From assembly GCA_015711755.1 (NCBI GenBank), contig JACVIY010000002.1, positions 1 to 50,867 of the forward strand: a stretch of 50,867 bases of DNA, given 5' to 3'. This document shows, piece by piece, positions 2,888-37,565 of the stretch. Source of the stretch: Candidatus Geothermincola secundus. GTDB taxonomy: Bacteria > Actinomycetota > Geothermincolia > Geothermincolales > Geothermincolaceae. The first letter of the stretch is position 1, and the number at the start of each line of letters is the position of its first letter. The notes below the pieces were generated by a model. The model saw only the letters and a list, made by a program, of their open reading frames with translations. It did no database searches and was not told the origin of the DNA. A program made the position numbers and the translations under genes.

Positions 2888-2989
2888 CCCTTTCGTGCAC
2901 CCCTTCCGTCCAAAGAGCTCTCAGGGGTTAAAGTATCGGAAGGAGAGCCCCCTGTCAAAGCCGGGGCAACCGGGATGGAAGGAGGCAAT

Positions 2990-3101
2990 GGGGTCGGGCC
3001 TCTTCGTATGTCCGGGACACCATCCTTTCCCTTATGGAGCGCAACTCCGGGGTCGTGCAAGAAAAGTTGAAGGTTTGGGCCTGGCCCCAAAATGAAGGTT
3101 T
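2990..3101. repeat. REPIN/MITE-like dispersed intergenic element, copy 1
   Basis: GGGGTCGGGCCTCTT...AAAAGTTGAAGGTTTGGGCCTGGCCCCAA; 3062-3090 is identical to 49724-49752; the ends are imperfect inverted repeats. Confidence 0.75.
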
Positions 3102-17888: not shown

Positions 17889-18165
17889 CCTCTCCACCAC
17901 CTCTCGGCGTACCGCCCACCTCAGCACCAGCGGCTCTTTCGCGCAAACGCAGCAGTAGGCCACGGGCTCCCTCCAGCTCCTCCGGCGGCACCAGCACCCT
18001 GCTCAGGCCCACGCTGCCGAAATAGGGGCGGGGGACATCGGTTAGCTCGTAAGGGTGGAAGCCCTCCTCCTCGAGGATTCCCCTCACCAGCTCGGCCTCC
18101 ATGTACTCCCCGGTGAAGACCACCGGGAGTTCCCTGCCGCGCCGCAGGCAATCGAGCCAGCCCAT
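17851..18165 (-). CDS. DUF2007-like small protein
   Basis: MEAELVRGILEEEG...RVLVPPEELEGARGLL pattern. Confidence 0.6.
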   Translation of the reverse strand: MGWLDCLRRGRELPVVFTGEYMEAELVRGILEEEGFHPYELTDVPRPYFGSVGLSRVLVPPEELEGARGLLLRLRERAAGAEVGGTPRGGGEDDPGDGFGHEGH

Positions 18166-21759: not shown

Positions 21760-21791
21760 AGCCCGCCTCCCCGGTCTTCACGCAGTCTCCG

Positions 21792-22745: not shown

Positions 22746-23488
22746 CGCTCCAGTTCCCCGCGCAGCCTGCGGTAGATGCGCATGCCTATATCCAACCCGC
22801 GGTCGATGAAATCCGGACCATAGCGGCGGCCGGTGCCGGTCCTGAAAGTGGACTTGATGCGCTCTATGCCCCCCATCGAGGGGAGGAAATGATCGAGCAA
22901 GACCGCCAGAGATATGTCGAACGGCGCCGCCATGGACCAGACCGTGCTGATGAAGTTGTCGGGGCCCCAGCGGAACTTATCCGCATCATAAAGCGAGTCG
23001 GAGAGCAGGCGGCAGGCGGGTTCTTCCAGCGCCTCGGTCTCCCGGAAAGCCTCATGGTTGCGGATGGCCGCGGCCACCGCCTCTATCTCCCATGCTTCCA
23101 ATCCCCTCTGAAACAGTATTCCCGCCGCCTCCTCTGCCCCGCGCCTGGCGTGATCGCTCTCCTCGCGCTTGACGTCATGCAGGGTGCCGGCAAGATGGGC
23201 CAGGCGCACCAGGCCGCGCACTTCGCCATCCGGCCGCCCGGCGGCCTCGATGATGATGACCGCCCCGGCATCAACGGCCACTTTGCGGACGTGGTCCAGG
23301 CCGTGCCCCAGCCGGTCGTAGCGCTCCCCCACCAGCCGCAGGCAATCCTGCACCAGCGTGTCCCTCTCGAAGCGGAGGCGCGATTCCCCCACCTCAGCCG
23401 CCCTCTCCCGGTAGAACAGAGGGGGCAGCACGGTCGCGGCTATCTCCTCGGAGACGCTGCGTGCCCATTCCAGCTCGCGCCGCTCCAT
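22742..23488 (-). CDS. HD-domain protein
   Basis: GHGLDHVRKVA, LHDVKR, DHARRG, NHEAF, YDADKF; ATGA overlap with MoxR gene. Confidence 0.8.
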   Translation of the reverse strand: MERRELEWARSVSEEIAATVLPPLFYRERAAEVGESRLRFERDTLVQDCLRLVGERYDRLGHGLDHVRKVAVDAGAVIIIEAAGRPDGEVRGLVRLAHLAGTLHDVKREESDHARRGAEEAAGILFQRGLEAWEIEAVAAAIRNHEAFRETEALEEPACRLLSDSLYDADKFRWGPDNFISTVWSMAAPFDISLAVLLDHFLPSMGGIERIKSTFRTGTGRRYGPDFIDRGLDIGMRIYRRLRGELER

Positions 23489-23775
23489 CACCGTCTCCCG
23501 TCCGTGACCCTTTCCGGCTCGGCTCCGATCCCTCCAAAAGGCGGGCCCCATTCTGGAGCGAGCGCCGCCGCGGGGGATGCGGCCATTAGATTTTATCGGA
23601 TGAGGCGGGTTCCAGCTTCATGCGGTCAGCGCCTCTCCGCCGGCCAGAGAAAAAGAAGCCGCGGACGGCAGGCGTCGGTGAAGGGCAGACTCCTCGTTTT
23701 CAACCTGAGCCTTTCGCCTGCTGCCCGCGGCAGTGGGGCATGTTTCCGTTTTCCGCCGCGTTGGCTTTGCCGCCG

Positions 23776-24123
23776 TCAGGAGGACGGGGCTCCCGCCCTC
23801 TTGATGCGGCGCCTCGCCATTCTGATGAAGTCATCCAGCGGGGCAAGGTTCAGACAGCGGTTGAGCTCCGTCAGCTCCCGCAGGATAACCTCCGCCTCTC
23901 CCGTCATCCCCTTCCCCATGGCTTCTTCCAAGCGTCTGGCCATCTCCCTGGCTTTTTCCTCGTATCCCTCCTGCATCTCCTGGCGGTCGCAGATGACTTT
24001 GTTGCCGCAGCGGGGGCACGCCCGAAATACCAGGGGACCGCAGCACATAACATTGCCGATCATGCGGAAGAGCGCGGCCTCCCCCTGAAAGCCGCATCCG
24101 TCGCAAGTGATCATGGGATCCAT
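23776..24123 (-). CDS. MasE-like rubredoxin/zinc-ribbon protein with helical C-terminal extension (paralogue 3)
   Basis: CDGCGFQGEAALFRM...FRACPRC; same pattern as 26249-26416 and 26413-26646. Confidence 0.65.
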   Translation of the reverse strand: MDPMITCDGCGFQGEAALFRMIGNVMCCGPLVFRACPRCGNKVICDRQEMQEGYEEKAREMARRLEEAMGKGMTGEAEVILRELTELNRCLNLAPLDDFIRMARRRIKRAGAPSS

Positions 24124-24169
24124 GTCCCGCGCTCTCCTGCAGCTTTCCGCCTGAGCCCGGCGGGAGCCC

Positions 24170-24334
24170 TCAGCGCGCCTGGAAGGAGGCGCACTGGTCC
24201 GCGGCCTTGTCCGCGCTAACCGGCTTGGCCGTCCAGTACTGACTCTTTCCGTCATCCTCCCGCTGAACGCAGTCCCCACGGCCGGGGTCCTCTTCCAGGG
24301 GGAAGAACCATTTGCACTCGCTGCAGCTGGCCAT
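24170..24334 (-). CDS. assC: Fumarate-adding enzyme gamma subunit (BssC/AssC/MasC-like), 54 aa
   Basis: Not in ORF track. MASCSECKWFFPLEEDPGRGDCVQREDDGKSQYWTAKPVSADKAADQCASFQAR; GGAGG RBS; matches the BssC-type pattern CxxCxxFF...GDCV...YWxxKPV...C. Confidence 0.88.
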   Translation of the reverse strand: MASCSECKWFFPLEEDPGRGDCVQREDDGKSQYWTAKPVSADKAADQCASFQAR

Positions 24335-24349
24335 TTTCCCTTTCCTCCC

Positions 24350-25273
24350 TCATCCGCCTACGGTCACTTCAAGGTCCCGCAACAGGAAGACCTCCACGAT
24401 CTCGCGCAGTCTTTCCTCGGGGTATCCCTCACCTTGCGGGAAGGGGTATTCCAATCCGAACACGCGGTATTTGGCTCCCGCATAGGGGTGGTATGGGAGC
24501 ACGTCCACTTCCAGGCCGCCTGCCGCCTGTTGCCGCAGCCCGGCCACGAAAGCGGCGGTGGCCTTCAGGTTTTCCTCATCATCGTTCACCCCGGGTATGA
24601 GCGGCACCCGCACCCGCATGGCCACTCCCGACTCCGCAACCCTGCGGGCGTTCTCCAGGATGAGGCCGTTGGAGCGCCCGCAGAAGGCGCGATGCCTGTC
24701 AGGGTCCATGTGCTTGATGTCGTAGAGCACGAAATCGGCGCCCTCAAGGGCCTTTTTCAGCTTCTCCCAGGGCGCGTGCCCGCAGGTATCCAGGGCGGTG
24801 TGTATGCCCCTTTCCTTTGCCGCTTTCAAGAGGGCCGCCGCGAACTCCGGCTGGGCCAGGGGCTCACCTCCGGAGAGGGTCATGCCGCCCCCTGAATTGC
24901 GGTAGAAGGGCTTGTCCCGCTCCACCTCCGCCATTATCTCCTCAACGCCGGCCTCCCTACCCCAGACCACCATGGCCTCATGGGGGCAGGCCTCGGCGCA
25001 AGAAAAGCAATCGATGCACCTGCCCTTGTCGATGCGCGGCCTGCGTTCCCCCGCCATGGATATCGCCCCCGCCGGACAGATCTCCATGCAAGTTCCGCAA
25101 CCCTCGCAGTTGGGCGAGTAGGGGAAGACCTCCGGGAAGCGCCGATTTCCCTCGGGATTGTGGCACCAGCGGCAGTTGAGCAGGCATCCCTTGAGGAAGA
25201 CGGTGGTGCGGATGCCCGGTCCGTCGCATAGGGAATATGTCTGTATGTCGGTGATGTACCCCTTGATGTCCAT
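24350..25273 (-). CDS. Glycyl-radical enzyme activating enzyme (radical SAM, AssD-like) no. 2
   Basis: DGPGIRTTVFLKGCLLNCRWCHNPE, 2x CxxCxxCxxxC ferredoxin insert, SGGEP. Confidence 0.93.
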   Translation of the reverse strand: MDIKGYITDIQTYSLCDGPGIRTTVFLKGCLLNCRWCHNPEGNRRFPEVFPYSPNCEGCGTCMEICPAGAISMAGERRPRIDKGRCIDCFSCAEACPHEAMVVWGREAGVEEIMAEVERDKPFYRNSGGGMTLSGGEPLAQPEFAAALLKAAKERGIHTALDTCGHAPWEKLKKALEGADFVLYDIKHMDPDRHRAFCGRSNGLILENARRVAESGVAMRVRVPLIPGVNDDEENLKATAAFVAGLRQQAAGGLEVDVLPYHPYAGAKYRVFGLEYPFPQGEGYPEERLREIVEVFLLRDLEVTVGG

Positions 25274-25282
25274 TTCCGCTCC

Positions 25283-26230
25283 CTATCCCCCGATGGTGGT
25301 CTTGATGCCCCTGCCCTCCAGGATCTCCCGGAAGTCCTCAACGTCGTATTCGGAGAGGCTTTCCGTCTCCTCATAGTCCCATTCCCTCCCCAGCCAGCGG
25401 TACTTGTCCTGGCACCAGTTGTGGAAGGGCAGTATGTCCACCTGAAGCAGGGCCGGTTTGAGCGTTTCCAGGAACTCGGCTATACGCCCCATCTGCTCGG
25501 TGGAGTCGTTGAAGCCGGGGATCACCGGCACCCGCACTATGATGCTCTCGCCCTCACAGGCAAGCCGGGCCAGGTTGGCGAGTATGGGCGAGTTGCTCAC
25601 CCCGGTGCGCAGAAGGTGCAGCTTTCCGCTCAGGCACTTGATGTCGTAGAGAAAGATGTCCACGTAGGGCCGGAGGGAATCCAGTACCTCCCAGGAGCAG
25701 AACCCGCTGGTGTCCAGGCAGGTATGGATGCCGCGGCGCTTGGCCTCACTCAGCAGCGCCAAGGTGAAGCGGGGAAAGCTGGTCGGCTCACCGCCGGTCA
25801 GCGTGAGCCCCCCCTCCGAGTTGTTGTAGAAAGGGATGTCCCGCTCAACCTCATCCAGTATCTCTTCCACGGTCATCCTCTCGCCCACCCGCAACAGGGC
25901 TTCATAGATGCACGCTTCCACGCATTTCATGCAGCGGTCGCACTTCTCGCGGTCTATCTTGTGGTAATGACGGCCCTCGTCATCGGGGTCCAGTTCCACC
26001 GGAGGTTGTACGGCACCTTGCGGGCACGCGTCGAAGCAGCGTCCGCACTGCCGGCAGAGGCTCTGCTTCCAGTAGATCTCGGGCCTGAAATCGATGCACT
26101 CGGGGTTATGGCACCAAGCACACTGCAGGGCGCATCCCTTGAGGAAGACGGTGGTGCGGATGCCCGGCCCGTCGTTTATGGAGAACCTCTGGATGTTGGT
26201 GACGTAGGCCTTCTCGCCGTCCTCGTGCAT
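25283..26230 (-). CDS. Glycyl-radical enzyme activating enzyme (radical SAM, AssD-like) no. 1
   Basis: DGPGIRTTVFLKGCALQCAWCHNPE, ferredoxin insert CRQCGRCFDACP/CDRCMKCVEAC, TGGEP. Confidence 0.93.
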   Translation of the reverse strand: MHEDGEKAYVTNIQRFSINDGPGIRTTVFLKGCALQCAWCHNPECIDFRPEIYWKQSLCRQCGRCFDACPQGAVQPPVELDPDDEGRHYHKIDREKCDRCMKCVEACIYEALLRVGERMTVEEILDEVERDIPFYNNSEGGLTLTGGEPTSFPRFTLALLSEAKRRGIHTCLDTSGFCSWEVLDSLRPYVDIFLYDIKCLSGKLHLLRTGVSNSPILANLARLACEGESIIVRVPVIPGFNDSTEQMGRIAEFLETLKPALLQVDILPFHNWCQDKYRWLGREWDYEETESLSEYDVEDFREILEGRGIKTTIGG

Positions 26231-26248
26231 GCCCGCCGCCCCGCCGCC

Positions 26249-26416
26249 TCAGGCCTTCGCCGCCTTCTCGCGGCGCTCCTCCTCCAGCTCGTTGCAGACC
26301 ACCCAGTTGTAGCATTTCGGGCACTCGCGGTATGCCGTCTCCGCATCCAAGGTCGTGTTGTAAAGGTAGCGGAATTCGGACTTGTGCCCCTCGAAGCCGC
26401 ATTTATCGCATCTCAT
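26249..26416 (-). CDS. MasE-like small subunit (paralogue 2), 55 aa
   Basis: MRCDKCGFEGHKSEFRYLYNTTLDAETAYRECPKCYNWVVCNELE; ATGA coupling to the upstream gene. Confidence 0.8.
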   Translation of the reverse strand: MRCDKCGFEGHKSEFRYLYNTTLDAETAYRECPKCYNWVVCNELEEERREKAAKA

Positions 26417-26646
26417 CTCGCATCCTCCGTATCCTCCCTGATGAACTTCTTCCCGAACACCGGCGAAAGCCCCCAGGGGCGCGCCGGCTCCCGCAGTTCC
26501 CGCTCCTCCTCCACCTCGTTGAAGTAGTTGATCTCGCGGCAAACGGGGCAGCGCCGCAGGGAGACCGCCCCGATGCCCTCGGCCGGCCCCAGGTAGCGGA
26601 ACTCCGCCAACGACCCCCTGTATCCGCAGCGCACGCAGCCCGCCAT
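26413..26646 (-). CDS. MasE-like small subunit (paralogue 1), 77 aa
   Basis: CVRCGYRGSLAEFRYL...LRRCPVC...NEVEE...PWG. Confidence 0.75.
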   Translation of the reverse strand: MAGCVRCGYRGSLAEFRYLGPAEGIGAVSLRRCPVCREINYFNEVEEERELREPARPWGLSPVFGKKFIREDTEDAR

Positions 26647-26650
26647 GCCT

Positions 26651-26953
26651 CTACTTCTCCTCGATTTGCCTCTGGGGACGGAAGGTGGGGTCCCACATGA
26701 ACTCGCTGGTGTCGGTGCGGATGCGGTCTATCTCCTTGTACTGGGAGCACTGAGAGGCGTCGGTGTTGTCGAAGACCACCTTGTTCAGCTCGTTCTCCAC
26801 GATCACCGCGCAGTGGCCGTCGCCCGCCGCAGAGGCGGAGTGCTGGCGGAAGTGCTCGCACTTGCCGCAGGCTTTCTCGGGCATCGCCTGCCTGCCTTTC
26901 TGCACCCCCCCCATCACGAACTGATCCCGAAGCTTGGCCCAATCATCGCTCAT
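26651..26953 (-). CDS. assB: Fumarate-adding enzyme beta-like Fe-S subunit (AssB/MasB-like)
   Basis: CGKCEHF...GHC...C four-Cys pattern; immediately downstream of the alpha subunit. Confidence 0.7.
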   Translation of the reverse strand: MSDDWAKLRDQFVMGGVQKGRQAMPEKACGKCEHFRQHSASAAGDGHCAVIVENELNKVVFDNTDASQCSQYKEIDRIRTDTSEFMWDPTFRPQRQIEEK

Positions 26954-26999
26954 CTCCCAGACCTCCTCCCGCCTTCCGGTACTCGAGCCCGCTCCCGCA

Positions 27000-29504
27000 T
27001 CAGCTGCCCAGCGACTGCACGTTGCGGGCGATGATGGTGTCCTGGGTCTTCTTGTTGAGGTCGATGAAGTGAGCCGAGTAACCGGCTATGCGCACGATGA
27101 GCTCGGGGTACTTCTCCGGCTCCTTCTGGGCCGCCTTAAGCGTCTCGTTGTCCACCATGTTGAACTGCACGTGGTCGATGCCCAGATCCGCCCAGGTCTT
27201 TATGTAGGAATGCCAGATCTGGAAGCCCTTCTCCCCCGCCAGCTGGGTGGGATTGAGCCGCTGGTTGAGCAGGGTGGCTCGCACCGCCCCGATGTGGTCT
27301 ATCTTGGCGACAGAGCGGAGCACTGCCGTGGGCCCCTTCTTGTCCAATCCCGCCCCCGGCGAGCAGCCCCCATCGTAAAGGGTATCGCCCAGCCGCCTCC
27401 CGTTAGGCAGCGCCCACACTTTGGTGGCATTGGTAACGTAGGCGGCGATATTCTCCGGAAGCGGCGGCCAGGGGTTCCCGGTGGGATCCTTTATCTCCCA
27501 CGAATGGGCGGCCACGTCGTTATGGCAGCGCACGTGGATTTGATCCACATAATCGTCATCGTTGCCCCACTTGGGAGCGCGCACGAAATCCATGCGCATC
27601 TCCTCATAGCCCTCCCAGTTGTTGCGGAGGGCCTCGATGAGCTGAGCCATGGTGTATTTCCTCTCATCGAAGACGAGCTTTTTCACCGCGGCCAGGGAAT
27701 CCCCCGTCTCCATCCAAGCGAAGAAGGTAATCCAGGAGTTGCCCCGCTCGCTGGGGTGAGCGGAGTCCACCCCCAGGTCCACGCAGCGCTCGTAGATGGC
27801 CGAGAGGAATGGCCGCGGGTCCAGCTCGGAGGAGTTGTAACGGCCCGCCCCGGTCACCTTGGTGAGCGTGTCCATCATCCACTTGATCTGGGTGTACCAG
27901 GCTTGATAGAGCTCCTCGAAGCTCTCGAACTTGGAAGCGTCCCCGGTGTGGGGGCCGAACTGCATCTGCAGCACCTGATCGAACCCGTCGAAGAGCGCGT
28001 ATTCCATGGCCTTGGCGGCGATGATGGTGGCATTGGCCATGCGGAAAGGCTGACAGCCCCATTTGGTGTCGGGGCAGGGGGACATGCAGGCCTGATGCAC
28101 CCAGCGCCTTGCTTCCTTGAGGGGATGGCGGTGCCAATGCATGGCGTTGGCGATGAGGATGGGATCGTTGCGCATGGAGGGATAGCCCAGCCCCTGGCGG
28201 ATGCACTCGAAGACGTTGCGCAGCGTCTGCATGCGCACCTGTGGATGGTAACGGAAGGCGAAGGTGGGGTTGGCCACCCTCACCAGCCGCGCCGCCTCCA
28301 GCAGGCAGTCGGTCATGTCGTTGCAGGCGTCGGTCCCGTCCTCGTTGACCCCCCCCAGGGTCCATACCCAGGTACCGGTGATGCCCTGCAGGGTGTCTCT
28401 CGCCAGCATCAACCAGAACCAGCCCACTTCGTAGCAGCGGATGAGGAACTCTCCGGTGAGGTCGAGGGCCTCTTCCTTCGTCAGCACCTTGTCCTGATTG
28501 ACATCCTTGTCGTAGAAGGGCCCGTGCCAGTAGTCGGGCCGGGCGGGCCAGGCCCCGTCGCAGGCCTCGTAGCGGGTTAGTATCTGTACGAAGTGGTCGA
28601 ACTGCAAGGATTCCCACAGATGCTCCGGCGGTCTTGCCGGCACCTTCCAGCAGGTCTCGGCGATGCGTTCCAGCTCCTGCTTGCGCTGCGGGTCGGTCTC
28701 GAAGTTCTCGGCGATTATGCGCGCCAGCCGGCTGTAGCGGCGGGCCCAGCGCACGGCCGCCTCCAGGGTTATCTTCATGGCCTTCCAGATGTCCAGCTTC
28801 TTGTAATACTCGTAGTCCTCAGGCTCGGGCACCCTGCGGTATATCCTCTCCTCCGCCTCCGCCATTTTCGCGTCGATCTCGGCGATGATACCCTCGAAAC
28901 CCAGGCGGAACATGTAGTCCCACTGCTTGGTGCAGTAGCCGATGCGGTGTATGGGAAGCCCCCAGCCTATGGCCCCGGTCATCAGCTTGACTATCTCCTC
29001 AGGGGGCAGCTTGGAGAACATCTTGGTCCCGGCGGTCTGGGGGTTCCAGTAATCGCAGATCTCCCTGATGATGCGCAGGCTCCGCTCCTCCGGCTCGGGG
29101 ATGACCGTGCGGTCGTTGTAGAGGTCCTCGTTGAGGAGGAAGAGTATCTCGGGGTGCCAGACGATGGTATGCGGGCGCGAGCCGAGGTAGCCCATTATCT
29201 GAGCGTGGTCCTGGATGAAGATGGTTATGTTGTCCCATACGTGGGCCAGGGCCTTGGCATGCCTGATGATCAGGGGGTCATGTTCGTTGGCCTGAAAGGC
29301 CTGGGTATAGAGGATGGGCCTTTCCAGATCCACTTTCACCCCGGGCTGATAGCCCGAGCCCTTGGCCCCCTTCTTCCAGACCGCCTTTCGCAGGTAATCG
29401 AGGCGTTTGGATCGCTTCTGCTCGGCCCACCACCACCATTGCCCGCTCTTTTCGATCTCCTCGATGCTCCTCATCTCCACAGCCGACATCTTTGGACCCC
29501 CCAT
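27000..29504 (-). CDS. assA: Alkylsuccinate synthase-type glycyl-radical catalytic subunit (AssA/MasD)
   Basis: WW-AEQKRSKRLDYLRKAVWKKG N-terminus, Cys loop WVHQACMSPCP, Arg 15 residues after the catalytic Cys (BssA Cys493/Arg508 spacing), Gly loop VRIAGYSAHF. Confidence 0.9.
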   Translation of the reverse strand: MGGPKMSAVEMRSIEEIEKSGQWWWWAEQKRSKRLDYLRKAVWKKGAKGSGYQPGVKVDLERPILYTQAFQANEHDPLIIRHAKALAHVWDNITIFIQDHAQIMGYLGSRPHTIVWHPEILFLLNEDLYNDRTVIPEPEERSLRIIREICDYWNPQTAGTKMFSKLPPEEIVKLMTGAIGWGLPIHRIGYCTKQWDYMFRLGFEGIIAEIDAKMAEAEERIYRRVPEPEDYEYYKKLDIWKAMKITLEAAVRWARRYSRLARIIAENFETDPQRKQELERIAETCWKVPARPPEHLWESLQFDHFVQILTRYEACDGAWPARPDYWHGPFYDKDVNQDKVLTKEEALDLTGEFLIRCYEVGWFWLMLARDTLQGITGTWVWTLGGVNEDGTDACNDMTDCLLEAARLVRVANPTFAFRYHPQVRMQTLRNVFECIRQGLGYPSMRNDPILIANAMHWHRHPLKEARRWVHQACMSPCPDTKWGCQPFRMANATIIAAKAMEYALFDGFDQVLQMQFGPHTGDASKFESFEELYQAWYTQIKWMMDTLTKVTGAGRYNSSELDPRPFLSAIYERCVDLGVDSAHPSERGNSWITFFAWMETGDSLAAVKKLVFDERKYTMAQLIEALRNNWEGYEEMRMDFVRAPKWGNDDDYVDQIHVRCHNDVAAHSWEIKDPTGNPWPPLPENIAAYVTNATKVWALPNGRRLGDTLYDGGCSPGAGLDKKGPTAVLRSVAKIDHIGAVRATLLNQRLNPTQLAGEKGFQIWHSYIKTWADLGIDHVQFNMVDNETLKAAQKEPEKYPELIVRIAGYSAHFIDLNKKTQDTIIARNVQSLGS

Positions 29505-29670
29505 CTCGTCCTTGCCTCTCCAGCGTTTCGGAGAGGATCCCGCCTCCCGACCGATATGCCCGGACGACCGGGCTTTGACATGCAGGGAACGCCGTCACTG
29601 GGTGCTCAGATGTTATCTTCGGGTGCTGCGAACTTTGGTGAAAAAACTACGGAATGAAATCTCTGAACTC

Positions 29671-29700
29671 ATCTTATGGATGGCCTCTCCATACAGTCAA
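29671..29700 (-). promoter_or_regulatory. Candidate sigma70 promoter for the assA operon
   Basis: TTGACT-N18-TAAGAT on minus strand. Confidence 0.55.
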
Positions 29701-29774
29701 GACGGGTGTTTGTTCATTTATGCGGCATTATTGAGGGCCGATTCACCCTGATTTTCCAAGAAACGGTCGAGGTC

Positions 29775-29800
29775 TGAACATATCAAGCCGATAATGTTCA
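29775..29800. promoter_or_regulatory. Palindromic operator TGAACA-N14-TGTTCA (copy 1)
   Basis: TGAACAtatcaagccgataaTGTTCA; same geometry at 31385-31410. Confidence 0.65.
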
Positions 29801-29882
29801 ATAAGCTTCCCTTAGAAGGGTTAGTGGAACACGAACCTGGTTCTTCGGCGACGCATCGGATTTGGAATCCGGCGCGCTGCTG

Positions 29883-31247
29883 TCATGAGCCGTAGAGGGC
29901 CATCAACTCCCCCAGATCCTCAAGCCGCTCCAGGCCCTTGAGCATATCAAGAGTCCTCTCCGCCACCTCGCGGCTCTTCAGCAGCTGTACGCATTCCAGG
30001 TATTTATCATGGATCTGCTCCTCGCTCATGGCATTGCCCGGCTCGCCCAGCGGTCTTTCCACATCCGCCTCGAAGACCGCCCCGTCCTTCATGGCCACGG
30101 TCAGATGGGCGGCGAAGGGGCTGACGGCCTCCCCCTCCAGGTCCTGCCAGACAAAGCGGGATATGGCCTCGGAGATATCCTCGCCGACAACCCTCTCATC
30201 GGTGAATTGGCGCACCCCCACCTTTCCGTCCAGGAGCGCGGCGCTCACGCAGAACTCCAGACTGAACTTTCCCTCCAGCCCGGAGCGGGGGCGGTGGTAA
30301 GTCAGCACGCCCCTCAGCCAGGAAGGAACCCGGCACTCCACGCGCTCCAGCGACGCTGGGTCCATATCGCCCCTGTCCTCGAGCACCTGCCGCCTTACCA
30401 GCAGCGCAGCGTCTATCGCTCCCTGGGGACCGCGGCAGCAGGGGTAGGGCTTGAAGCTCAGACCGGGGTCGAGCAATTCCCAAGGTCGTCCCAGAGAGGA
30501 GGCCATCTCGGCCGCCCGATGAGTATCCCCGGACAGGCAGCGGGCCAGGCCGTTCTCCCCGAAGAGGCAGTCGGGGTTGGCGGTGAACCTTTGTTCCGCG
30601 AGCTGCGCCGCCATGACCCCCTGCATGGCGGCGAGTCCCGCGTGCAGGGGTTTGGTCATGGTCCCGAAATTGGCGCGCACTCCGTTGGCCATGGAGCAGG
30701 CAATACCCAAAGCGTGGGCGGCTTCTTCCTCCCCAAGGCCCAGCAGCCTGCTGCAGGACGCCGCTGCTCCCAGCGTGCCCATGACGCTGGTCATATGCCA
30801 GCCGATGGCGTAGGGGTTGCCCCCCAGAGCCTGCCCCGCTTTGGCGGCGACTTCCAGCCCCGCTATGTAAGCGAGGATGCAGTCGCGCCCGCTTCTGCCC
30901 CTCTCCTCGGCTATGGCTATCACCGCCGGCACCAAAGCCACCGAGGGATGGCCGAGCATGCGGAAGCACACGTCATCGTAATCCAGGGCATGCGCCGCCG
31001 TCCCGTTGGCCAGGGCCGCCCAAGGAGCCGAGGTCTTCGAGCCGTTCAGGAGCAAGGTCGAGGACGGACGCCCCCCCAAGGCCACCGCCCACCGCGTCGC
31101 GATGCGCGAGGATTCGTCCTCCAGTCCCGCAAGGGCCACACCCATGCAGTCGATGATGGGCAGAACGGCGGCCCTCTTCGCTTCCTCCGGGATGTCCCCA
31201 TAATCCAGCCCGCATACCCAACGAGCAACATCCATCAATTCATCCAT
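29883..31247 (-). CDS. MmgE/PrpD family protein (candidate alkylsuccinate epimerase)
   Basis: NGTAAHALDYDD, HPS, NFGTMTKPLHAG, KPYPCCR, KFSLEF. Confidence 0.88.
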   Translation of the reverse strand: MDELMDVARWVCGLDYGDIPEEAKRAAVLPIIDCMGVALAGLEDESSRIATRWAVALGGRPSSTLLLNGSKTSAPWAALANGTAAHALDYDDVCFRMLGHPSVALVPAVIAIAEERGRSGRDCILAYIAGLEVAAKAGQALGGNPYAIGWHMTSVMGTLGAAASCSRLLGLGEEEAAHALGIACSMANGVRANFGTMTKPLHAGLAAMQGVMAAQLAEQRFTANPDCLFGENGLARCLSGDTHRAAEMASSLGRPWELLDPGLSFKPYPCCRGPQGAIDAALLVRRQVLEDRGDMDPASLERVECRVPSWLRGVLTYHRPRSGLEGKFSLEFCVSAALLDGKVGVRQFTDERVVGEDISEAISRFVWQDLEGEAVSPFAAHLTVAMKDGAVFEADVERPLGEPGNAMSEEQIHDKYLECVQLLKSREVAERTLDMLKGLERLEDLGELMALYGS

Positions 31248-31384
31248 CCTTCATCCCCCTTTTCACCGTGCCTTAATTGAACACTTCCCATTTAATTTGT
31301 ATGGATACGGAAAACGATTATCCCCCCAATTACCTTGGACCTCGCGGGCATCCGACCCAAAAACCGGGAAAGTGACCCTCTCGC

Positions 31385-31410
31385 TGAACATTGCGCCTTC
31401 GATTTGTTCA
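31385..31410. promoter_or_regulatory. Palindromic operator TGAACA-N14-TGTTCA (copy 2)
   Basis: TGAACAttgcgccttcgattTGTTCA in the AT-rich divergent intergenic region. Confidence 0.65.
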
Positions 31411-31446
31411 AAAATGATGAAGTTGTATAAAATAACTCGCTGATGC

Positions 31447-31476
31447 TTGACGCCTTGCCGAATCGATGCTTAATAT
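31447..31476 (+). promoter_or_regulatory. Candidate sigma70 promoter for the mutase operon
   Basis: TTGACG-N18-TAATAT. Confidence 0.55.
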
Positions 31477-31662
31477 ACGTCTTGATGCGGCCCGATCATA
31501 ACACAGCCACACGGCACTGTAAAGAAGTTCCTTTTGCGGCTATGTTTCAGCAATACAGGCAAATCTGAAGGCCAGATATATTCTTTTCCGTCACACAAAT
31601 GACGTCGCGGGGCTCCGCCTCGAAAGGCGGGACTGTGACTCGGATGAAAAGGAGATGGTGCC

Positions 31663-32079
31663 ATGGCGCGGAGTTCAACCGAACCCGGAAAGAGGGTGAG
31701 GGTCATGGTCGCCAAGCCGGGGCTGGACGGCCATGACCGAGGCGCGAAAGTCCTGGCTCTGGCTCTGAAGGATGCCGGCATGGAGGTCATCTATCTGGGA
31801 TTGCGCCAATCACCCGAGAGCATCGCCCGCAGCGCGGTGGACGAGAATGTGGACGTGGTCTGCCTCAGTTGTCTTTCGGGAGCCCACAACCACCTCTTCC
31901 CCGAAGTGGTGAGGAAGCTGCGCGAGATGGGGGCGGGGGATATCCCCGTACTGGGAGGAGGCCTCATACCGGAGGAGGACCGCGATTTCCTGAGGAGCGA
32001 GGGCGTGGCCGAGGTCTTCTCCCCCACCGTGCCGATGAAGGAGGTCGTCAGGCGTATAGAGGAGTTGGCGCAGCGATGA
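31663..32079 (+). CDS. Cobalamin-binding small subunit of acyl-CoA mutase
   Basis: AKPGLDGHDRGAK (DxHxxG), LSCLSGAH, GGGLIP. Confidence 0.93.
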   Translation: MARSSTEPGKRVRVMVAKPGLDGHDRGAKVLALALKDAGMEVIYLGLRQSPESIARSAVDENVDVVCLSCLSGAHNHLFPEVVRKLREMGAGDIPVLGGGLIPEEDRDFLRSEGVAEVFSPTVPMKEVVRRIEELAQR

Positions 32080-32133
32080 GCCGCGGCTCCCGACCGCCTC
32101 GGATGACCTTGGTCGGTGATATGGAGGTGACGG

Positions 32134-33804
32134 ATGACCAAGGATAATGATCCCGCGACGCTTCGCCAGGCTTACGAGAACTGGCGCAATGAAGTGCTGG
32201 CCCGAACCGCCGCCAAATGGGGGCGCAGCCTGGAAGACATGCCCAAGAGCGTCTATACGCCCCTTGACCTGGAGGATCACGATTACCTGAGGGATCTGGG
32301 CTTCCCCGGGCAGTATCCTTTCACCCGCGGAGTCTACCCCACCGCCATACCCGGCGGGCTCTTCGGCGTCCGCCAGTACTCCGGTTTCGGCACGGCCGAG
32401 GAGACCCGCGATCGGCTGCGCTACCTCATCGGCAGAGGCCAAGCCGGGTTCAGTCTGGCCTCAGACCTTCCCACCCAGATCGGCTACGACTCCGACCATC
32501 CCCTGGCCCGGGGAGAGATAGGCCGCATCGGGGTGGCCATCGATACATTGGAAGATTTGGACACGATCCTTGAGGCCTTCGAAGATAAGACGCAGCCCTT
32601 CGTGAGCCGCCCCTCTTTCACCGCCAACTCTCAGGCCGCGGTGATCATCGCCATGTTCGTCGCCCTTGCCGATAAATACGGGGTGCCCCTGGAGAACATC
32701 ACCGGCACCATACAAAACGACATCCTCAAGGAGTACGTGGCCCGCGGCACCTACATCTACCCGCCGCGTCCCTCGCTGAAGCTGGTGGGCGACACCATCG
32801 AGTTCTGCGCGAAGCGCATGCCCCGCTTCAACTTCATCAGCATCTCCGGCTACCATATCCGCGAGGCGGGCGCCTCACCCGCCCAAGAGATAGCCTTCAC
32901 CCTTTCCAACGGCATAGCCTATGTCGAGGAGGGCCTGCGCCGCGGCCTCTCGGTGGACGATTTCGCCCCGCGCATCTCCTTCATCTTCGCCTCGGGCATC
33001 CTCTTCTTCGAGGAAGTGGCCAAGTTCCGCGCCTGCCGGCGCATCTGGGCCAGGACCATGAAGGAGCGTTTCGGGGCATCCAAGCCTGATTCCCAGAAGC
33101 TCCGCTTCGCTTCCGGCTTCGCCGGCTCCACTTACACCTCCCGCCGCCCGCTCAACAACATCATACGAGCCACCATCGAGTGCTTCGCTTCCATAGCCGG
33201 GGGAGCCACCGGCAGCGCGGTAGCCCCCTATGACGAAGCCATCTGCCTCCCCACCGAGGAAAGCAGCCTCATCGCTCTGGACACGCCGCGCATACTGGGG
33301 TACGAGGCCAAGGTCACCGACGTTAACGACCCCCTGGGGGGGTCCTACTACGTGGAAGCCCTCACCGATCAGCTGGAGGAGGAGGCTCTCTCCATCATGC
33401 GCGTTATCGAGGACATGGGAGGAGCGGTCGCGGCAATCGAGAACGGCTACATGCAGGGGGAGATCGCCAAAGGGGCTTACGAGCAGTTCAAGCAGATGGA
33501 GTCGGGGGAGAAGACGGTGGTGGGTGTGAACCGCTTCGAGACCGAGGAGTTCACCGTATGCGAGACCTTCCGGCTGGACCCCCAGGTGGAGGAAAAACAA
33601 CTGAAGCGTCTGGCTGCGGCTAAGAAAAGGCGCGATCCCGCCGCGGTCAGGGATTCGCTGAAGCGCTTAAGGGGAGCGGCCGAGAGGGATGAGAACGTGA
33701 TGGAGCCGCTCCTGGATGCGGTCAAGCGCAATGCCACGGTGGGCGAGATATGCGACGTCTTCCGCGATGTATGGGGGGAGTACAGGCCGCCTCAGGGAAT
33801 CTGA
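32134..33804 (+). CDS. Methylmalonyl-CoA mutase-family large subunit (candidate alkylsuccinyl-CoA mutase)
   Basis: PGQYPFTRG, RQYSGFG, DLPTQIGYDSD, QNDILKEYVARG, SGYHIREAG, DPLGGSYYVE. Confidence 0.92.
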   Translation: MTKDNDPATLRQAYENWRNEVLARTAAKWGRSLEDMPKSVYTPLDLEDHDYLRDLGFPGQYPFTRGVYPTAIPGGLFGVRQYSGFGTAEETRDRLRYLIGRGQAGFSLASDLPTQIGYDSDHPLARGEIGRIGVAIDTLEDLDTILEAFEDKTQPFVSRPSFTANSQAAVIIAMFVALADKYGVPLENITGTIQNDILKEYVARGTYIYPPRPSLKLVGDTIEFCAKRMPRFNFISISGYHIREAGASPAQEIAFTLSNGIAYVEEGLRRGLSVDDFAPRISFIFASGILFFEEVAKFRACRRIWARTMKERFGASKPDSQKLRFASGFAGSTYTSRRPLNNIIRATIECFASIAGGATGSAVAPYDEAICLPTEESSLIALDTPRILGYEAKVTDVNDPLGGSYYVEALTDQLEEEALSIMRVIEDMGGAVAAIENGYMQGEIAKGAYEQFKQMESGEKTVVGVNRFETEEFTVCETFRLDPQVEEKQLKRLAAAKKRRDPAAVRDSLKRLRGAAERDENVMEPLLDAVKRNATVGEICDVFRDVWGEYRPPQGI

Positions 33805-33895
33805 AAAACGAGGCTTGAGGCGCCGGAGTGCCGTGCCCTGCGTGGACTGCCTTTGCCGCCGTCCGTCATAGATCTTTGTAAGATGAGAACAGGGG

Positions 33896-35443
33896 GTGTT
33901 CGAGATGAACGTGGGGGAGTGGGCTTATAAGCGATCCATCAACCCTCTTTCCGGGAACAAAGTGGCCTTCGTGGCCGAGGGCAGGGAATACACTTACCGC
34001 GATTTCAACAAGAGGGTCAACCGCCTGGCCAACGGCCTTCTTTCGCTGGGGCTGCGCAAAGGGGACCGCGTGGCCGGACTCTTCTTCAACTGCGTCCCCT
34101 TCATGGACGCCTATTTCGCCTGCGCCAAGTGCGGCTTCATCTGGGTGCCGCTGAACTTCCGCCTCACCGCCTCCGAGCTGGCGGGCCTCTTCGAGGATAC
34201 CCGGCCCCGCGCCTTTCTCTTCCATTCGGAGTTCAACGACCGGGTGACCGAGCTTCGGGGACTGTACGACAAACCGCTTGAACTATGGGCGGTAGCGGGC
34301 GAGCCGGTGCCCGACTTCGCCGAGGACTACGAAGCGTGGGCAGCCGGTTTCGACGATTCGGAGCCGAGGGCGCCGGAGCCGCCGGACATGGAGGACCCCC
34401 AGATGCTCATGTTCACCTCCGGTACCACCGGCAAGCCCAAAGGCGCGCTGCTGCCCCACCGCAAGACCTTCTTCAACACCTTCAACGACGTTCTCGAGCT
34501 TCTCTTCGATTCCAACGCCGTATCCCTGGTCTCCATACCCATATTCCACTCGGGGGGCATCAACATCATCACCATGCCCACCTTCTACTGCGGGGGCACG
34601 GTCATCTTCCAGAAGTTCTGGAACCCCCAGGAGGCTCTCCAGATCATCAACGACCGCAAGGTGACCCATTTCGGGGCGGTGCCCACCATGCTGCAGATGA
34701 TGCTGGACGTGCCCGACTTCGAGCGCTATGACCTGAGCTCCCTGCGGGGAGTGGGCATCGGCGGCTCTCCCGCCTCCCGGGAGCTCCTGGAGAACATCCG
34801 CGACCGCATGAAAGTGCCCCTGGTGGCCCAGGTCTTCGGATGCACCGAGACCTCGGTGGTATGCTACTGCACCAACATGGAGAAGATAGGCAGCGCGGGG
34901 CTGCCCCAGTTCCTGGGAGACGTCAAGGTGATCAAGGAGGACGGGAGCGAGGTCACTCCAGGTTCCGGTGAAGTGGGGGAGGTCTGCGCCAGGGGGCCCA
35001 TGGTCATGTTGGGTTACTGGAACAACCCCGAGGCCACCGCCGAGGCCATCGTCGACGGCTGGTTCCACTTCGGCGACCTGGCCACCGTGGACGAGGACGG
35101 ATACATCTACATAGTCGACCGCAAGAAGGACATGATCATCAGCGGCGGCGAGAACATCTATCCCGCCGAGGTCGAGAAGGTGCTGTCCACCCACCCCGCC
35201 GTCGCCGACGTGGCGGTGATCGGCGCGCCCGATCCAAAATGGGGCGAGGTGGGGCTGGCCCTGGTGGTCCCGCGGGAGGGGCGGGAAATAACCCTTCAGG
35301 AAATAGAGGATTTCTGCGAAGGCAAACTGGCCCGCTATAAGATACCCAAGCAGCTTTTAAAGGTGGAGTCCATCCCCCGCACCCTCACCGGTAAGATACT
35401 GAAGAAGGAGCTGCGGCAGGCCTACCTGGAACAGCGGAGCTGA
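33896..35443 (+). CDS. AMP-forming acyl-CoA synthetase (AssK-like)
   Basis: FTSGTTGKPKG, FGCTE, GDLATVDEDG, IVDRKKDMIISGGENIYP, TGKILK. Confidence 0.92.
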   Translation: MFEMNVGEWAYKRSINPLSGNKVAFVAEGREYTYRDFNKRVNRLANGLLSLGLRKGDRVAGLFFNCVPFMDAYFACAKCGFIWVPLNFRLTASELAGLFEDTRPRAFLFHSEFNDRVTELRGLYDKPLELWAVAGEPVPDFAEDYEAWAAGFDDSEPRAPEPPDMEDPQMLMFTSGTTGKPKGALLPHRKTFFNTFNDVLELLFDSNAVSLVSIPIFHSGGINIITMPTFYCGGTVIFQKFWNPQEALQIINDRKVTHFGAVPTMLQMMLDVPDFERYDLSSLRGVGIGGSPASRELLENIRDRMKVPLVAQVFGCTETSVVCYCTNMEKIGSAGLPQFLGDVKVIKEDGSEVTPGSGEVGEVCARGPMVMLGYWNNPEATAEAIVDGWFHFGDLATVDEDGYIYIVDRKKDMIISGGENIYPAEVEKVLSTHPAVADVAVIGAPDPKWGEVGLALVVPREGREITLQEIEDFCEGKLARYKIPKQLLKVESIPRTLTGKILKKELRQAYLEQRS

Positions 35444-35485
35444 AAAGCGGGTAAAGGGGCAGAGGGGCGAGGAGGAGGAACGGTG

Positions 35486-36286
35486 ATGACCGAAGGGAAC
35501 GAGCTGTTGGTGGAGAGAGACGGGCCGGTGGCACTGCTGACCCTGAACCGCCCGGAGAAGCGCAACGCCCTGTCCTCTTCCCTTCTGGTGTCGCTGGTCG
35601 GGGCCCTGCGGGACCTGGAAGCGGAGGGCGAGGTGCGCTGCGTGGTCCTGCGCGGGGCCGGCGATAAGGCCTTTTCCGCCGGGATGGACCTCTCCGCTCT
35701 GCCGGAAGGCATACCCGCCGACATACAGTCCCTCATCGAGGAGAAGGGGCCGCTGGCCTACGGCCTGGACGCGGTGGAGGAATGCCCGCTCCCGGTCATC
35801 GCCATGATCCGCGGTTGGTGCCTGGGGGCGGGCTGCGAAACCGCCATGGCCTGCGATCTGCGGGTGGGCGCCGCGGGGTGCCGCATGGGCATGCCGCCGG
35901 CGCGCCTGGGCATCGTCTACCCGCCGGAGGGCCTAAACCGCTTCTTACGCGCCGTCGGGCCCTCGGTGACCCGCAAGATATTCCTCACCGCGCGCTACTT
36001 CGAGGGCGAGGAGGCGCTGGCCGGCGGGATGCTGCACTACCTGGTGCCGGACGACCGGCTGGAGGAGTTCACCATGGATCTGGCGCGTGAGGTGGCCGGG
36101 CTCGCTCCCCTTTCCCTGGCCGGGCATAAGCGCTCCCTTTTCCACCTCACCCGCCCGTCCCCTCTTTCCGCGGAGGCGCGGTCGGAGATCGACGGGCTGA
36201 TGGCCCGGGCCCTGGCCAGCGAGGATGCCCGCGAGGGCCTGGCCGCCTTCGTCCAGAAGAGGGAGCCGCGTTTCACCGGAAAGTAG
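35486..36286 (+). CDS. Crotonase-superfamily protein (AssJ-like; possible acyl-malonyl-CoA decarboxylase)
   Basis: LNRPEKRNAL, FSAGMDL, CLGAGCE, MPPARLGIVY, EDAREG. Confidence 0.88.
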   Translation: MTEGNELLVERDGPVALLTLNRPEKRNALSSSLLVSLVGALRDLEAEGEVRCVVLRGAGDKAFSAGMDLSALPEGIPADIQSLIEEKGPLAYGLDAVEECPLPVIAMIRGWCLGAGCETAMACDLRVGAAGCRMGMPPARLGIVYPPEGLNRFLRAVGPSVTRKIFLTARYFEGEEALAGGMLHYLVPDDRLEEFTMDLAREVAGLAPLSLAGHKRSLFHLTRPSPLSAEARSEIDGLMARALASEDAREGLAAFVQKREPRFTGK

Positions 36287-36367: not shown

Positions 36368-36745
36368 TCAGCTGCTCTTCCAGAGCCCGTGGAGGTTGCA
36401 GTACTCGCGGGCGGTGACACCCTCTCGGGGAACCGCGAACCTGCCCTCGGGAGCTATGCCCGGCTTGAGGAAGATGCGGAAAGAAGAGTCGCCGGCGACG
36501 ATCTGCACCCACTCGATATAATGGTCGTCCTGCATGGGGTGAGCCACCTCGCCCACCTTGACCAGCACGCCGTCCTCGGCGACCTCCACCACGGGTACGT
36601 GTTTCTCCACCGCGGCGTCCACCATTCCCTCGACCTGCAGCGCCATGGGCTGCCCGCAGCAGACCAGCTCGCCCTTGCCCGCGTGCAGCACTTCCACGAT
36701 GTTCCCGCAGATCTCGCACTTGTAGACCTGTAGCCTTTCCGTCAT
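36368..36745 (-). CDS. dfx: Desulfoferrodoxin (2Fe superoxide reductase)
   Basis: YKCEICGNIV...CCGQPM, EKHVP, HPMQDDHYIEW, YCNLHGLW. Confidence 0.96.
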   Translation of the reverse strand: MTERLQVYKCEICGNIVEVLHAGKGELVCCGQPMALQVEGMVDAAVEKHVPVVEVAEDGVLVKVGEVAHPMQDDHYIEWVQIVAGDSSFRIFLKPGIAPEGRFAVPREGVTAREYCNLHGLWKSS

Positions 36746-36867
36746 CGACCGATACCTCCTTCGCTCCGTTATATCCACGCGCCTGCGATACCGGGTTTTC
36801 TTATACCCGGTAGGGCGAGGCGGTAAACGATAGGGGCGGACCCGCGGAAGGCAGGGAAAGGAGCGCT

Positions 36868-37215
36868 CTACCCCTGTTCTTTGTTGAACATCTCGAAGAG
36901 CATGTGGGGGGATATGGCATCCTCGCGGTGCTCGCTGGCGTAATCGTCGATATAGGGGACCGCCAGTTTGTTCCAGGTCTCGTGATCCCAAGGGTTGTCG
37001 TTTAGGATGAGGGCCACGGCGTAACTCTCCCCGTCATTGGTCATGGCCTGTATCTCGCAGGCGGAGATTTTCTCCTCCAACATGCGCGTCAAGGCGTCGC
37101 GGAGGATGGTCAGAGCCGCGCTGTTGCCAACGATGCTTGCCTTATCGTGGTAGAAGAACTGGGAGAATATATGTAGAAGGGGATACTCCAATCTCTCACA
37201 CCTCCTCGAGGGCAC
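36868..37215 (-). CDS. Hypothetical protein
   Basis: Protein-like ORF (HDKASIVGNSAAL...NDGESY...LAVPY); start uncertain. Confidence 0.6.
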   Translation of the reverse strand: MPSRRCERLEYPLLHIFSQFFYHDKASIVGNSAALTILRDALTRMLEEKISACEIQAMTNDGESYAVALILNDNPWDHETWNKLAVPYIDDYASEHREDAISPHMLFEMFNKEQG

Positions 37216-37489: not shown

Positions 37490-37565
37490 GGGCCGCTAGC
37501 TCAGTCGGCAGAGCACCGGACTTTTAATCCGGGTGTCCTGGGTTCGAGCCCCAGGCGGCCCACCA
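37490..37565 (+). tRNA. tRNA-Lys (UUU)
   Basis: GGGCCGC acceptor stem, TAGCTCAG, CCGGA-CT-TTT-AA-TCCGG anticodon arm, GGTTCGAG T-loop, encoded CCA; TATAAT at 37478-37483. Confidence 0.97.

Follow-up and report, generated by a model that had tools for sequence, protein, structure and literature searches.

A probable alkane-type X-succinate synthase locus in the chromosome of an uncultured actinobacterium related to Candidatus Solincola

Gene content of the locus and the catalytic subunit

Fumarate addition is the main known oxygen-free attack on alkanes, and the cultured alkane degraders that employ it belong to the Thermodesulfobacteriota, the Betaproteobacteria and a few Firmicutes. The DNA analyzed here is a 50,867-nucleotide stretch (below, the window) comprising positions 1-50,867 of contig JACVIY010000002.1, forward strand, from the Candidatus (Ca.) Geothermincola secundus assembly GCA_015711755.1. 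A sequence-only reading had proposed that it carries a locus for hydrocarbon activation by fumarate addition. This locus consists of a minus-strand group of genes resembling the subunits and activases of a glycyl-radical enzyme (GRE), headed by a gene of the MmgE/PrpD family, and of a divergent plus-strand group encoding a B12-dependent mutase, a ligase and a crotonase-fold protein. We consider it likely that it represents a complete locus for an X-succinate synthase (XSS) of the alkane type, i.e. a (1-methylalkyl)succinate synthase (MASS) or alkylsuccinate synthase (ASS), borne on the chromosome of an anaerobic, uncultured relative of Ca. Solincola within the Actinomycetota, together with a predicted alkylsuccinate pathway. 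The substrate can be predicted only as a saturated hydrocarbon; its chain length and its linear, branched or cyclic nature are not readable from the sequence. The features of the locus are the following (aa, amino acids; ORF, open reading frame):

29883-31247, minus strand: MmgE/PrpD-family gene (PF03972 and PF19305)
27000-29504, minus strand: GRE alpha subunit of the MasD/AssA type (PF02901, 436 bits; PF01228, 101 bits)
26651-26953, minus strand: MasB-like beta subunit, 100 aa (PDB 9o8u_B, E 3e-9)
26413-26646, minus strand: MasE-like (delta) paralog 1, 77 aa, with a CxxC...CPxC pattern (9o8u_D, E 6.8e-5)
26249-26416, minus strand: MasE-like paralog 2, 55 aa, with Cys knuckles as in paralog 1
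25283-26230, minus strand: glycyl-radical activase 1, a radical SAM protein (TIGR02494, 345 bits, cut-off 174)
24350-25273, minus strand: glycyl-radical activase 2 (TIGR02494, 342 bits, cut-off 174)
24170-24334, minus strand: MasC/BssC-like gamma subunit, 54 aa, with four Cys (PF08201, E 1.8e-16; 9o8u_C, E 2e-10)
23776-24123, minus strand: MasE-like paralog 3, 115 aa (knuckle alignment; 23776 is the ORF stop)
31248-31662: 415-bp divergent intergenic region between the prpD-mas and mutase-ligase-crotonase operons
31663-32079, plus strand: B12-binding small subunit of an acyl-CoA mutase (PF02310; TIGR00640, 157 bits)
32134-33804, plus strand: large subunit of the acyl-CoA mutase (PF01642, 604 bits)
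33896-35443, plus strand: AMP-forming acyl-CoA ligase with a putative AssK-like role (PF00501 and PF13193)
35483-36286, plus strand: crotonase-fold protein (PF00378)

The ORF listing and domain scans recovered all 13 genes named in the sequence-only reading, in the same positions, order and orientation, and the motifs it had quoted for the alpha subunit are present: QACMSPCP at residues 471-478 (with Cys473), Arg488 at Cys+15, and RIAGYS at residues 805-810 (with Gly808). The start of MasE-like paralog 2 overlaps the stop of paralog 1. The promoter-like sites of the intergenic region 31248-31662, which include 31523-31495 (minus strand) and 31447-31476 (plus strand), number three against 3.1 expected and are therefore not above chance, and the terminator scan likewise stayed at chance level. 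A scan of the locus for RNA families revealed no riboswitch or other known RNA, its sole match being a tRNA at 37490-37562 (plus strand).

The alpha subunit is 834 aa long, or 829 aa with the alternative start chosen by the gene caller (P0001). When it was compared with all PDB sequences, the best match was MasD (9o8u_A, 1126 bits over residues 11-833); benzylsuccinate synthase (BSS) scored 542 bits and the remaining GREs all scored below 340. The protein contains both domains of the GRE superfamily (PF02901 and PF01228), and its residues were mapped by pairwise PDB alignment and then in a 53-row alignment. Gly808 aligns to the radical glycine of MasD and BssA, while Cys473 and Arg488 align to MasD C477 and R492 (BssA C493 and R508), as is typical of an XSS. 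The residues distinguishing MASS from BSS were taken from section 9 of PMC12358834. Trp181, Tyr190, Thr593, Phe595 and Glu684 correspond to MasD W185, Y194, T598, F600 and E690, i.e. five of the six residues of the alkane-type pocket are kept, and all 12 rows of the actinobacterial clade, as well as those of canonical AssA, show the same five. At the sixth position, MasD F192 at the distal pocket end, the window protein has Ile188. Nine different residues occur at this position across the AssA-clade rows. The 12 sequences of the actinobacterial clade all have Ile, Desulfoglaeba and Desulfatibacillum have Tyr, Smithella has Ser, and F, G, V, L, A or N is found elsewhere. Since it is so variable within the clade, it is not family-defining.

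An enzyme of the BssA type, and with it an aromatic substrate, was rejected by the bit scores (542 versus 1126) and by the pocket residues: Glu, Tyr and Thr of MASS are replaced by Gln707, Ser199 and Asn615 in BSS (PMC12358834, section 9), and it is the MASS set that the window protein shows. BssABC of T. aromatica (4pkc/5bwe) shares with the window system the GRE fold, the Cys/Gly/Arg core of fumarate addition and the gamma family PF08201, but lacks MasB- or MasE-type subunits, both of which are encoded in the window. Limonenylsuccinate synthase (PMC12583861) was also considered for comparison; it is Bss-like (61% identical to BssA) and hence not relevant.

For the phylogeny of the alpha subunit, a quick maximum-likelihood tree was computed from 53 rows. 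Of these, 36 came from the 95 full-length ORFs recovered at the loci and 17 from the 120 proteins listed; the tree was rooted on a further GRE of the window (15510-17963) and has SH-aLRT (approximate likelihood ratio test) support values. The sampling of this tree is partial, and it contains no BssA, NmsA, IbsA, HbsA or HxN1 MasD rows. The window alpha falls in an actinobacterial clade of 11 rows (support 100), nested in a clade of 41 rows (support 100) that includes AssA of Desulfoglaeba alkanexedens, Desulfothermus naphthae, Smithella and Desulfatibacillum. Together with a few sequences (71-79% identity) from metagenome-assembled genomes (MAGs) of Thermodesulfobacteriota or 'Deltaproteobacteria', the actinobacterial clade is placed next to the canonical AssA clade. 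A Peptococcaceae-SCADC-type clade and Chloroflexota sequences (41-47%) lie outside the 41 rows. The placement within the AssA/MasD clade that the sequence-only reading had expected was thus obtained with this set of rows. The comparisons confirmed the alpha subunit as a MasD/AssA ortholog, i.e. as the predicted catalytic subunit of an alkane-type XSS.

Small subunits and activases

The beta, gamma and delta subunits and a GRE activase, which accompany an alkane-type synthase, are all encoded beside the alpha gene; beta and gamma are of the [4Fe-4S] type, and the three delta paralogs are rubredoxin-like. The subunit roles in MASS of Azoarcus/Aromatoleum sp. HxN1 (MasBCDE, 9o8u) are described in sections 7-9 of PMC12358834, and the window locus resembles that enzyme in its four kinds of subunit, in the conservation of all four Cys of both beta and delta, and in the alpha residues equivalent to C477, R492, E690, Y194, T598, F600, W185 and the radical Gly. 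The MasB-like Cys residues C29, C32, C48 and C69 all align to the cluster cysteines of 9o8u_B, whose ligands are Cys32/35/51/86 according to section 8 of the same paper. The window beta subunit is, however, shorter than HxN1 MasB (100 versus 120 aa), and the loop wrapped around the MasB cluster is gapped in it. Other differences from the HxN1 system are Ile at the F192 position, three delta-like paralogs instead of one, two activases, and an actinobacterial instead of a betaproteobacterial host. The gamma subunit also matched BSS gamma in the PDB search (4e-8).

The CxxC...CPxC knuckles are common to all three MasE-like proteins in the alignment. Paralog 2 is the most conserved of them (75-81% identity in relatives); it is 80% identical to its counterpart in the Peptococcaceae locus L055 and 39-45% identical to the single masE products of loci L011, L025 and L057. 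This conservation and the match to the canonical single masE suggest that paralog 2 is probably the working, canonical delta subunit. Paralog 3 has a rubredoxin-like knuckle domain and shows 49-60% identity in six relatives, among which C7, C10, C27, C28, C36, C39, C45 and C90 are invariant. Four of these invariant residues, including a CC pair, are additional to the rubredoxin-like four, and an extension of about 65 residues at the C-terminus is conserved as well, which suggests a second metal site or another partner.

The two activases are 45% identical to each other. Activase 1 scored 297 bits with the BssD model, below the cut-off of that model, and shows 69-74% identity in relatives. Activase 2 is present in the related loci L004, L005, L006, L054 and L076 and absent from L007, L010 and L053.

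The further GRE gene of the window, at 15510-17963 (minus strand), encodes an 817-aa protein assigned to the PFL2/glycerol-dehydratase family with 615 bits versus a cut-off of 678. Its best PDB match is choline trimethylamine-lyase (498 bits), it has Ser at the position of the fumarate-binding Arg, and no activase adjoins it; either of the two mas-operon activases might serve it. A third GRE of the genome is encoded on contig C41.

Host and distribution of the locus

The nearest named records of the alpha subunit are those of Ca. Solincola quzhuomuensis (88%) and of other Actinomycetota MAGs (83-88%), and in the NCBI taxonomy Ca. Solincola lies within the class Ca. Geothermincolia. Such neighbors suggest this class, or a close sister of it, for the window's genome. 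The anaerobic Actinomycetota host suggested by the sequence-only reading was thereby borne out. The close named records derive from hot-spring, deep-mine and other MAG studies, with titles that are mostly not related to oil. In a species-level genome set, to which all class and phylum counts refer, alpha orthologs (73-92%) were detected in 13 of 51 genomes of the class, including the window's own, and all 13 belong to one order. Four further genomes of the class contain only a GRE of 35-37% identity. Among 401 evenly sampled Actinomycetota genomes, 11 have an alpha ortholog, and all of these are in the same two families. In the related genome G027, the N-terminal portion of alpha was matched three times, each time partially (73-80%), on contigs C22, C26 and C28, which points to several copies or to a fragmented assembly.

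The identity of MasD to its orthologs in four relatives (92, 88, 87 and 84%) ranks in the same way as that of Ffh (82, 77, 76 and 75%). This parallel ranking fits vertical descent with losses and speaks against mis-binning, and the fumarate-addition trait would accordingly be old in this order of Actinomycetota, inherited vertically and lost in some lineages. Besides the locus, the contig has smc, ftsY and ffh, and with 0.60-0.68 throughout it is even in GC content. All named relatives of Ffh with at least 74% identity are Actinobacteria/Actinomycetota MAGs, the first named hits outside the actinobacteria being Firmicutes at 65%. A chimeric contig was rejected on the basis of the even GC content, the three chromosomal genes, the relatives of Ffh, and the tracking of Ffh by MasD.

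What is new is the host clade, in which the trait is apparently ancestral at the level of the order; the synthase operon and its island are known. A study by Jiao et al. of 2021 in ISME J is said to have named the class and a species 'oleiphilus', which may bear on this claim of novelty. The literature that was searched, as far as its text was accessible, held no link between Geothermincolia or UBA1414 and X-succinate synthases or alkanes, and an earlier mention may still exist; the sequence-only reading had remarked that fumarate-adding enzymes were already proposed in uncultured thermophilic actinobacteria. The paper on Ca. Solincola uaceae contains none of six hydrocarbon terms looked for.

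Accessory genes, predicted pathway and genome context

To place the neighboring genes, 16 window proteins were compared by tblastn with 72 assA loci of other genomes (E at most 1e-3, query coverage at least 60%). Homologs of the PrpD-family protein were found in 17 of these loci (12 among the 34 loci that span 15 kb or more), of the mutase small subunit in 17, of its large subunit in 20, of the ligase in 17 and of the crotonase in 14. The carriers include loci of Syntrophaceae, Desulfatibacillaceae, Desulfobacterales, Dehalococcoidales and Peptococcaceae, and in the Desulfatibacillaceae locus L014 the activases likewise stand in tandem and the MasE-like genes again number three. A PrpD-family gene, an AssK-type ligase and a crotonase beside the synthase operon are features that the window shares with the AK-01-type island. 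The accessible text of a comparative study of 2026 (PMC13685792) lists such partners for ass locus I of Desulfatibacillum alkenivorans AK-01 and for Smithella family B, and they were seen directly in L011, L014, L025 and L055. Since the same partners occur in assA loci across phyla and in that study, the compactness and the subunit set of the window locus are not unusual. The sequence-only reading had called both its gene order and its subunit set unusual, of which only the former holds: the order differs from that in the window's own relatives, whereas the same set of genes recurs in Syntrophaceae, Desulfatibacillaceae, Desulfobacterales and Peptococcaceae loci. Its proposal of an alkane-type fumarate-addition locus with a full subunit set and candidates for the downstream ligase, mutase and crotonase was supported.

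In the loci of several relatives (L004 of Ca. Solincola quzhuomuensis, L005, L006, L010, L053 and L054) the alpha subunit is 83-88% identical to that of the window, the order alpha-beta-E1-E2-AE(-AE)-gamma-E3 (E, MasE-like; AE, activase) is shared, and the PrpD-family protein, ligase and crotonase are 60-75% identical. In these loci, unlike in the window, the ligase and crotonase genes precede alpha in the same orientation, prpD is divergent, and the mutase is of the ass type, with a radical-SAM/PDZ gene between its subunits. The arrangement in six relatives (L004, L005, L006, L054, L077 and L078) is mutL, the radical-SAM/PDZ gene, mutS, prpD (reverse), ligase, crotonase and then alpha onward, whereas the mas operon of the window begins with prpD, and its mutase, ligase and crotonase genes form the divergent operon. 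For G025, the closest relative (alpha 92%), none of these accessory genes was seen within 7 kb. Compared with the AK-01 and Smithella islands, the gene order of the window is permuted, its mutase is another paralog (43-47%), no carboxyl transferase and no AssE-type match was found, and its alpha subunit is 58-65% identical and belongs to a separate clade.

The radical-SAM protein with a PDZ domain is 674 aa long and is encoded at 2193-4217 (plus strand) of L004, with the same place in other relatives. The relatives also have a biotin-enzyme cluster downstream of the mas genes, at 16311-21304 in L004, consisting of a biotin ligase-like gene, BioY, a PycB-type carboxyltransferase/biotin-carrier protein and a biotin carboxylase. 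It resembles a two-subunit pyruvate carboxylase and could have a role in fumarate supply. No such cluster adjoins the window locus.

The mutase sets the window apart. Among the ass-linked mutases of actinobacterial, deltaproteobacterial and Peptococcaceae loci, the large subunits share 55-73% identity, but their identity to that of the window (mutL) is only 43-47%. An ass-type mutase is present in the MasD-bearing genomes G025 (82%) and G033 (88%), and was not found in G022 and G024, which lack MasD. For the window mutL, no ortholog above 50% was detected in the 50 other genomes of the class, and in a collection of 5.8 billion proteins it has one relative of 90% identity (P0122), all others being at most 56%. 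It is therefore a near-orphan, lineage-restricted paralog instead of the usual ass-linked mutase, i.e. a predicted lineage-specific replacement at this locus. Its best PDB match is HcmA (488 bits), while methylmalonyl-CoA mutase (MCM) scored 400 bits, and it reached 512 bits with the MCM equivalog NF006944, whose cut-off is 876. Tyr82 and Arg204 of mutL align to MCM Tyr89 and Arg207, which we take to be the carboxylate-binding residues and which are Ile and Gln in HcmA. At Asp of HcmA, whose substrate positions are presumably Ile90 and Asp117, mutL has Ala. The Tyr/Arg pair also occurs in ass-type mutases and is absent from the three other mutases of the genome. Its retention fits a substrate with a free carboxylate, equally for the rearrangement of alkylsuccinyl-CoA and for an MCM-type regeneration of fumarate. 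The view that one locus covers activation through rearrangement consequently stands only in part: a mutase candidate is present, but it is not an ortholog of the ass-linked mutase and could instead serve to regenerate fumarate.

The PrpD-family protein scored 47 bits with the PrpD equivalog (cut-off 950), and its PDB matches are B. subtilis IRG1 (224 bits), iminodisuccinate (IDS) epimerase (212) and cis-aconitate decarboxylase (157). By these scores it is placed in the IRG1/IDS-epimerase branch and not with PrpD proper. All three of these enzymes act on substituted succinates, and the racemase proposed for epimerization is reported to be missing from Smithella and Atribacteria (PMC6776118, accessible text), which together make an epimerase role of the PrpD-family neighbor a testable idea. 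The protein probably acts on a substituted succinate by epimerization or isomerization. On contig C103 of the window's genome (3363-7838), a family-III CoA-transferase/racemase-type gene is situated 2 kb from a mutase large-subunit gene whose product lacks the MCM Tyr/Arg; this pair is a possible second site of CoA-ester processing.

The ligase exceeded the cut-off of NF004837 (498 versus 476 bits) and is 68-75% identical in relatives and 38-41% identical in Thermodesulfobacteriota assA loci. In the published pathway, the AssK ligase is followed by the mutase and a carboxyl transferase (PMC6776118, accessible text). The crotonase reached 181 bits with the methylmalonyl-CoA decarboxylase (MMCD) model NF008506 (cut-off 257), and its PDB matches are the hydratase-type 4k2n (143 bits) and MMCD 1ef8 (131 bits). 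Its catalytic positions were assigned on the assumption that the glutamate pair of hydratases is Glu144/Glu164 of rat enoyl-CoA hydratase. The first Glu is present (GAGCETAM), whereas the second position (MGMPPARLG) has none, and the second Glu is likewise absent from 15 of 15 aligned ass-linked crotonase homologs, with the motif MPPxxLG. As no full-length carboxyl transferase was detected in the genome (two short pieces only), the glutamate-deficient crotonase is a reasonable candidate decarboxylase.

From these assignments the following route can be proposed. An activase would install the glycyl radical, Cys473 would take a hydrogen from the saturated hydrocarbon, and the alkyl radical would combine with fumarate to give an alkylsuccinate. 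The neighboring ligase would convert it to the CoA thioester, and the B12 mutase would convert the succinyl-CoA skeleton into a malonyl-CoA derivative. The crotonase would then act as decarboxylase, and the product would enter beta-oxidation with the many acyl-CoA dehydrogenases of the genome.

Several observations weigh against a complete alkane-type locus with this pathway. Besides the limited row set of the alpha tree and the Ile at the distal pocket position, most of them concern the later steps: mutL is distant from the ass-linked mutases, no ass-type mutase was found in the window's own genome (G000, 83% complete), mutL is the only MCM-like (Tyr/Arg) mutase of the four in the genome, and it may simply regenerate fumarate from propionyl-CoA. 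The absence of a full-length carboxyl transferase belongs here as well, as does the finding that the family-III CoA-transferase/racemase-type gene on C103, away from the locus, is the only one found in the genome. Finally, dsrA was not found in this genome of 83% completeness.

Among the alternatives, an ordinary methylmalonyl-CoA-type mutase, leading from propionyl-CoA via methylmalonyl-CoA and succinyl-CoA to fumarate with no rearrangement of alkylsuccinyl-CoA, is doubtful but deserves serious weight. The MCM motifs RQY and ARGTY, which are found in MCM structures and in mutL alone among the four mutases of the genome, agree with it, as do the position of mutL outside a family conserved across phyla and the co-occurrence of the ass-type mutase with MasD. 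On the other hand, the MCM equivalog score is far below its cut-off, the best solved relative is HcmA rather than MCM, and a single 90% relative followed by at most 56% is unlike a housekeeping MCM; the mutase genes run in the same direction as those of the ligase and crotonase, next to the mas operon, and the same Tyr and Arg in ass-type mutases suit either role. We regard it as unlikely that activase 2 serves the GRE at 15510-17963, 9 kb away, instead of MasD and that the extra MasE-like genes are spare and outside the complex. That GRE has no activase beside it and a single activase suffices in L007, L010 and L053, but the tandem activases and three MasE-like genes recur in L014, and paralog 3 has been kept with its eight invariant Cys in six relatives.

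Similarly little probability is given to a genuine XSS whose natural substrate is not an n-alkane, such as a gaseous short-chain alkane, an iso- or cycloalkane, or another compound with unactivated C-H bonds from hot-spring or deep-subsurface fluids. The separation of the actinobacterial clade from every AssA of a cultured alkane degrader in the tree, the constant Ile at a pocket position that varies widely in other AssA, and the mostly non-oil origin of the closest records would suit such an enzyme; all other alkane-type pocket and fumarate-binding residues are nevertheless identical to those of MasD, and position 192 varies among known n-alkane degraders too, as Desulfoglaeba and Desulfatibacillum (Tyr) and Smithella (Ser) show. 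Far less probable still is a mis-binned or chimeric piece of Thermodesulfobacteriota DNA, or a very recent transfer, in place of an actinobacterial trait. The next-closest alpha sequences outside the clade do include MAGs of that origin, but the actinobacterial clade is monophyletic, 12 other genomes of the order have alpha orthologs, whose identity follows that of Ffh, and the contig, even in GC content, places the locus with smc, ftsY and an ffh of actinobacterial affinity.

An alkane-type locus with an alkylsuccinate pathway would add one more phylum to the anaerobic hydrocarbon degraders, and would point to a turnover of alkanes in fluids of geothermal and deep terrestrial settings by anaerobes that otherwise look like acetogens. 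A much broader combination of these ideas strikes us as improbable as a whole: that an entire order of deep-branching Wood-Ljungdahl Actinomycetota of hot springs and the deep subsurface oxidizes alkanes anaerobically by a non-textbook alkylsuccinate route, in which the PrpD/IDS-epimerase-family protein would be the missing epimerase in place of alpha-methylacyl-CoA racemase, the crotonase would decarboxylate (2-methylalkyl)malonyl-CoA independently of biotin, and a new mutase paralog would have taken over the rearrangement in this genus. The locus offers thermostable candidates for MASS biochemistry, which has become tractable only recently, and its conserved PrpD-family and crotonase genes open two steps of the pathway, epimerization and decarboxylation, to direct testing.

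The genome (2.39 Mb, 83% complete) encodes AcsB/CdhC and one flavoprotein of the SdhA/FrdA type, and it has 23 domain matches for acyl-CoA dehydrogenase. A desulfoferrodoxin (superoxide reductase) gene at 36368-36991 (minus strand) adjoins the plus-strand operon, with the tRNA gene beyond it. This content fits a strict anaerobe that would be capable of beta-oxidation. A search of sequencing runs returned no RNA run carrying the locus and four DNA runs with shares of at most 0.17, from which no inference was drawn.

Directly downstream of the mas operon, at 20374-23551 (minus strand), there are genes for an HD-domain protein, a MadB-like AAA ATPase (352 bits versus a cut-off of 475) and a MadC-like VWA protein. 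They were considered as AssE-type chaperones and rejected, as they matched none of the 72 assA loci and are absent from the loci of relatives; they are probably unrelated to the synthase. Just past them, at 19583-20233, lies a gene with a molybdopterin-oxidoreductase domain.

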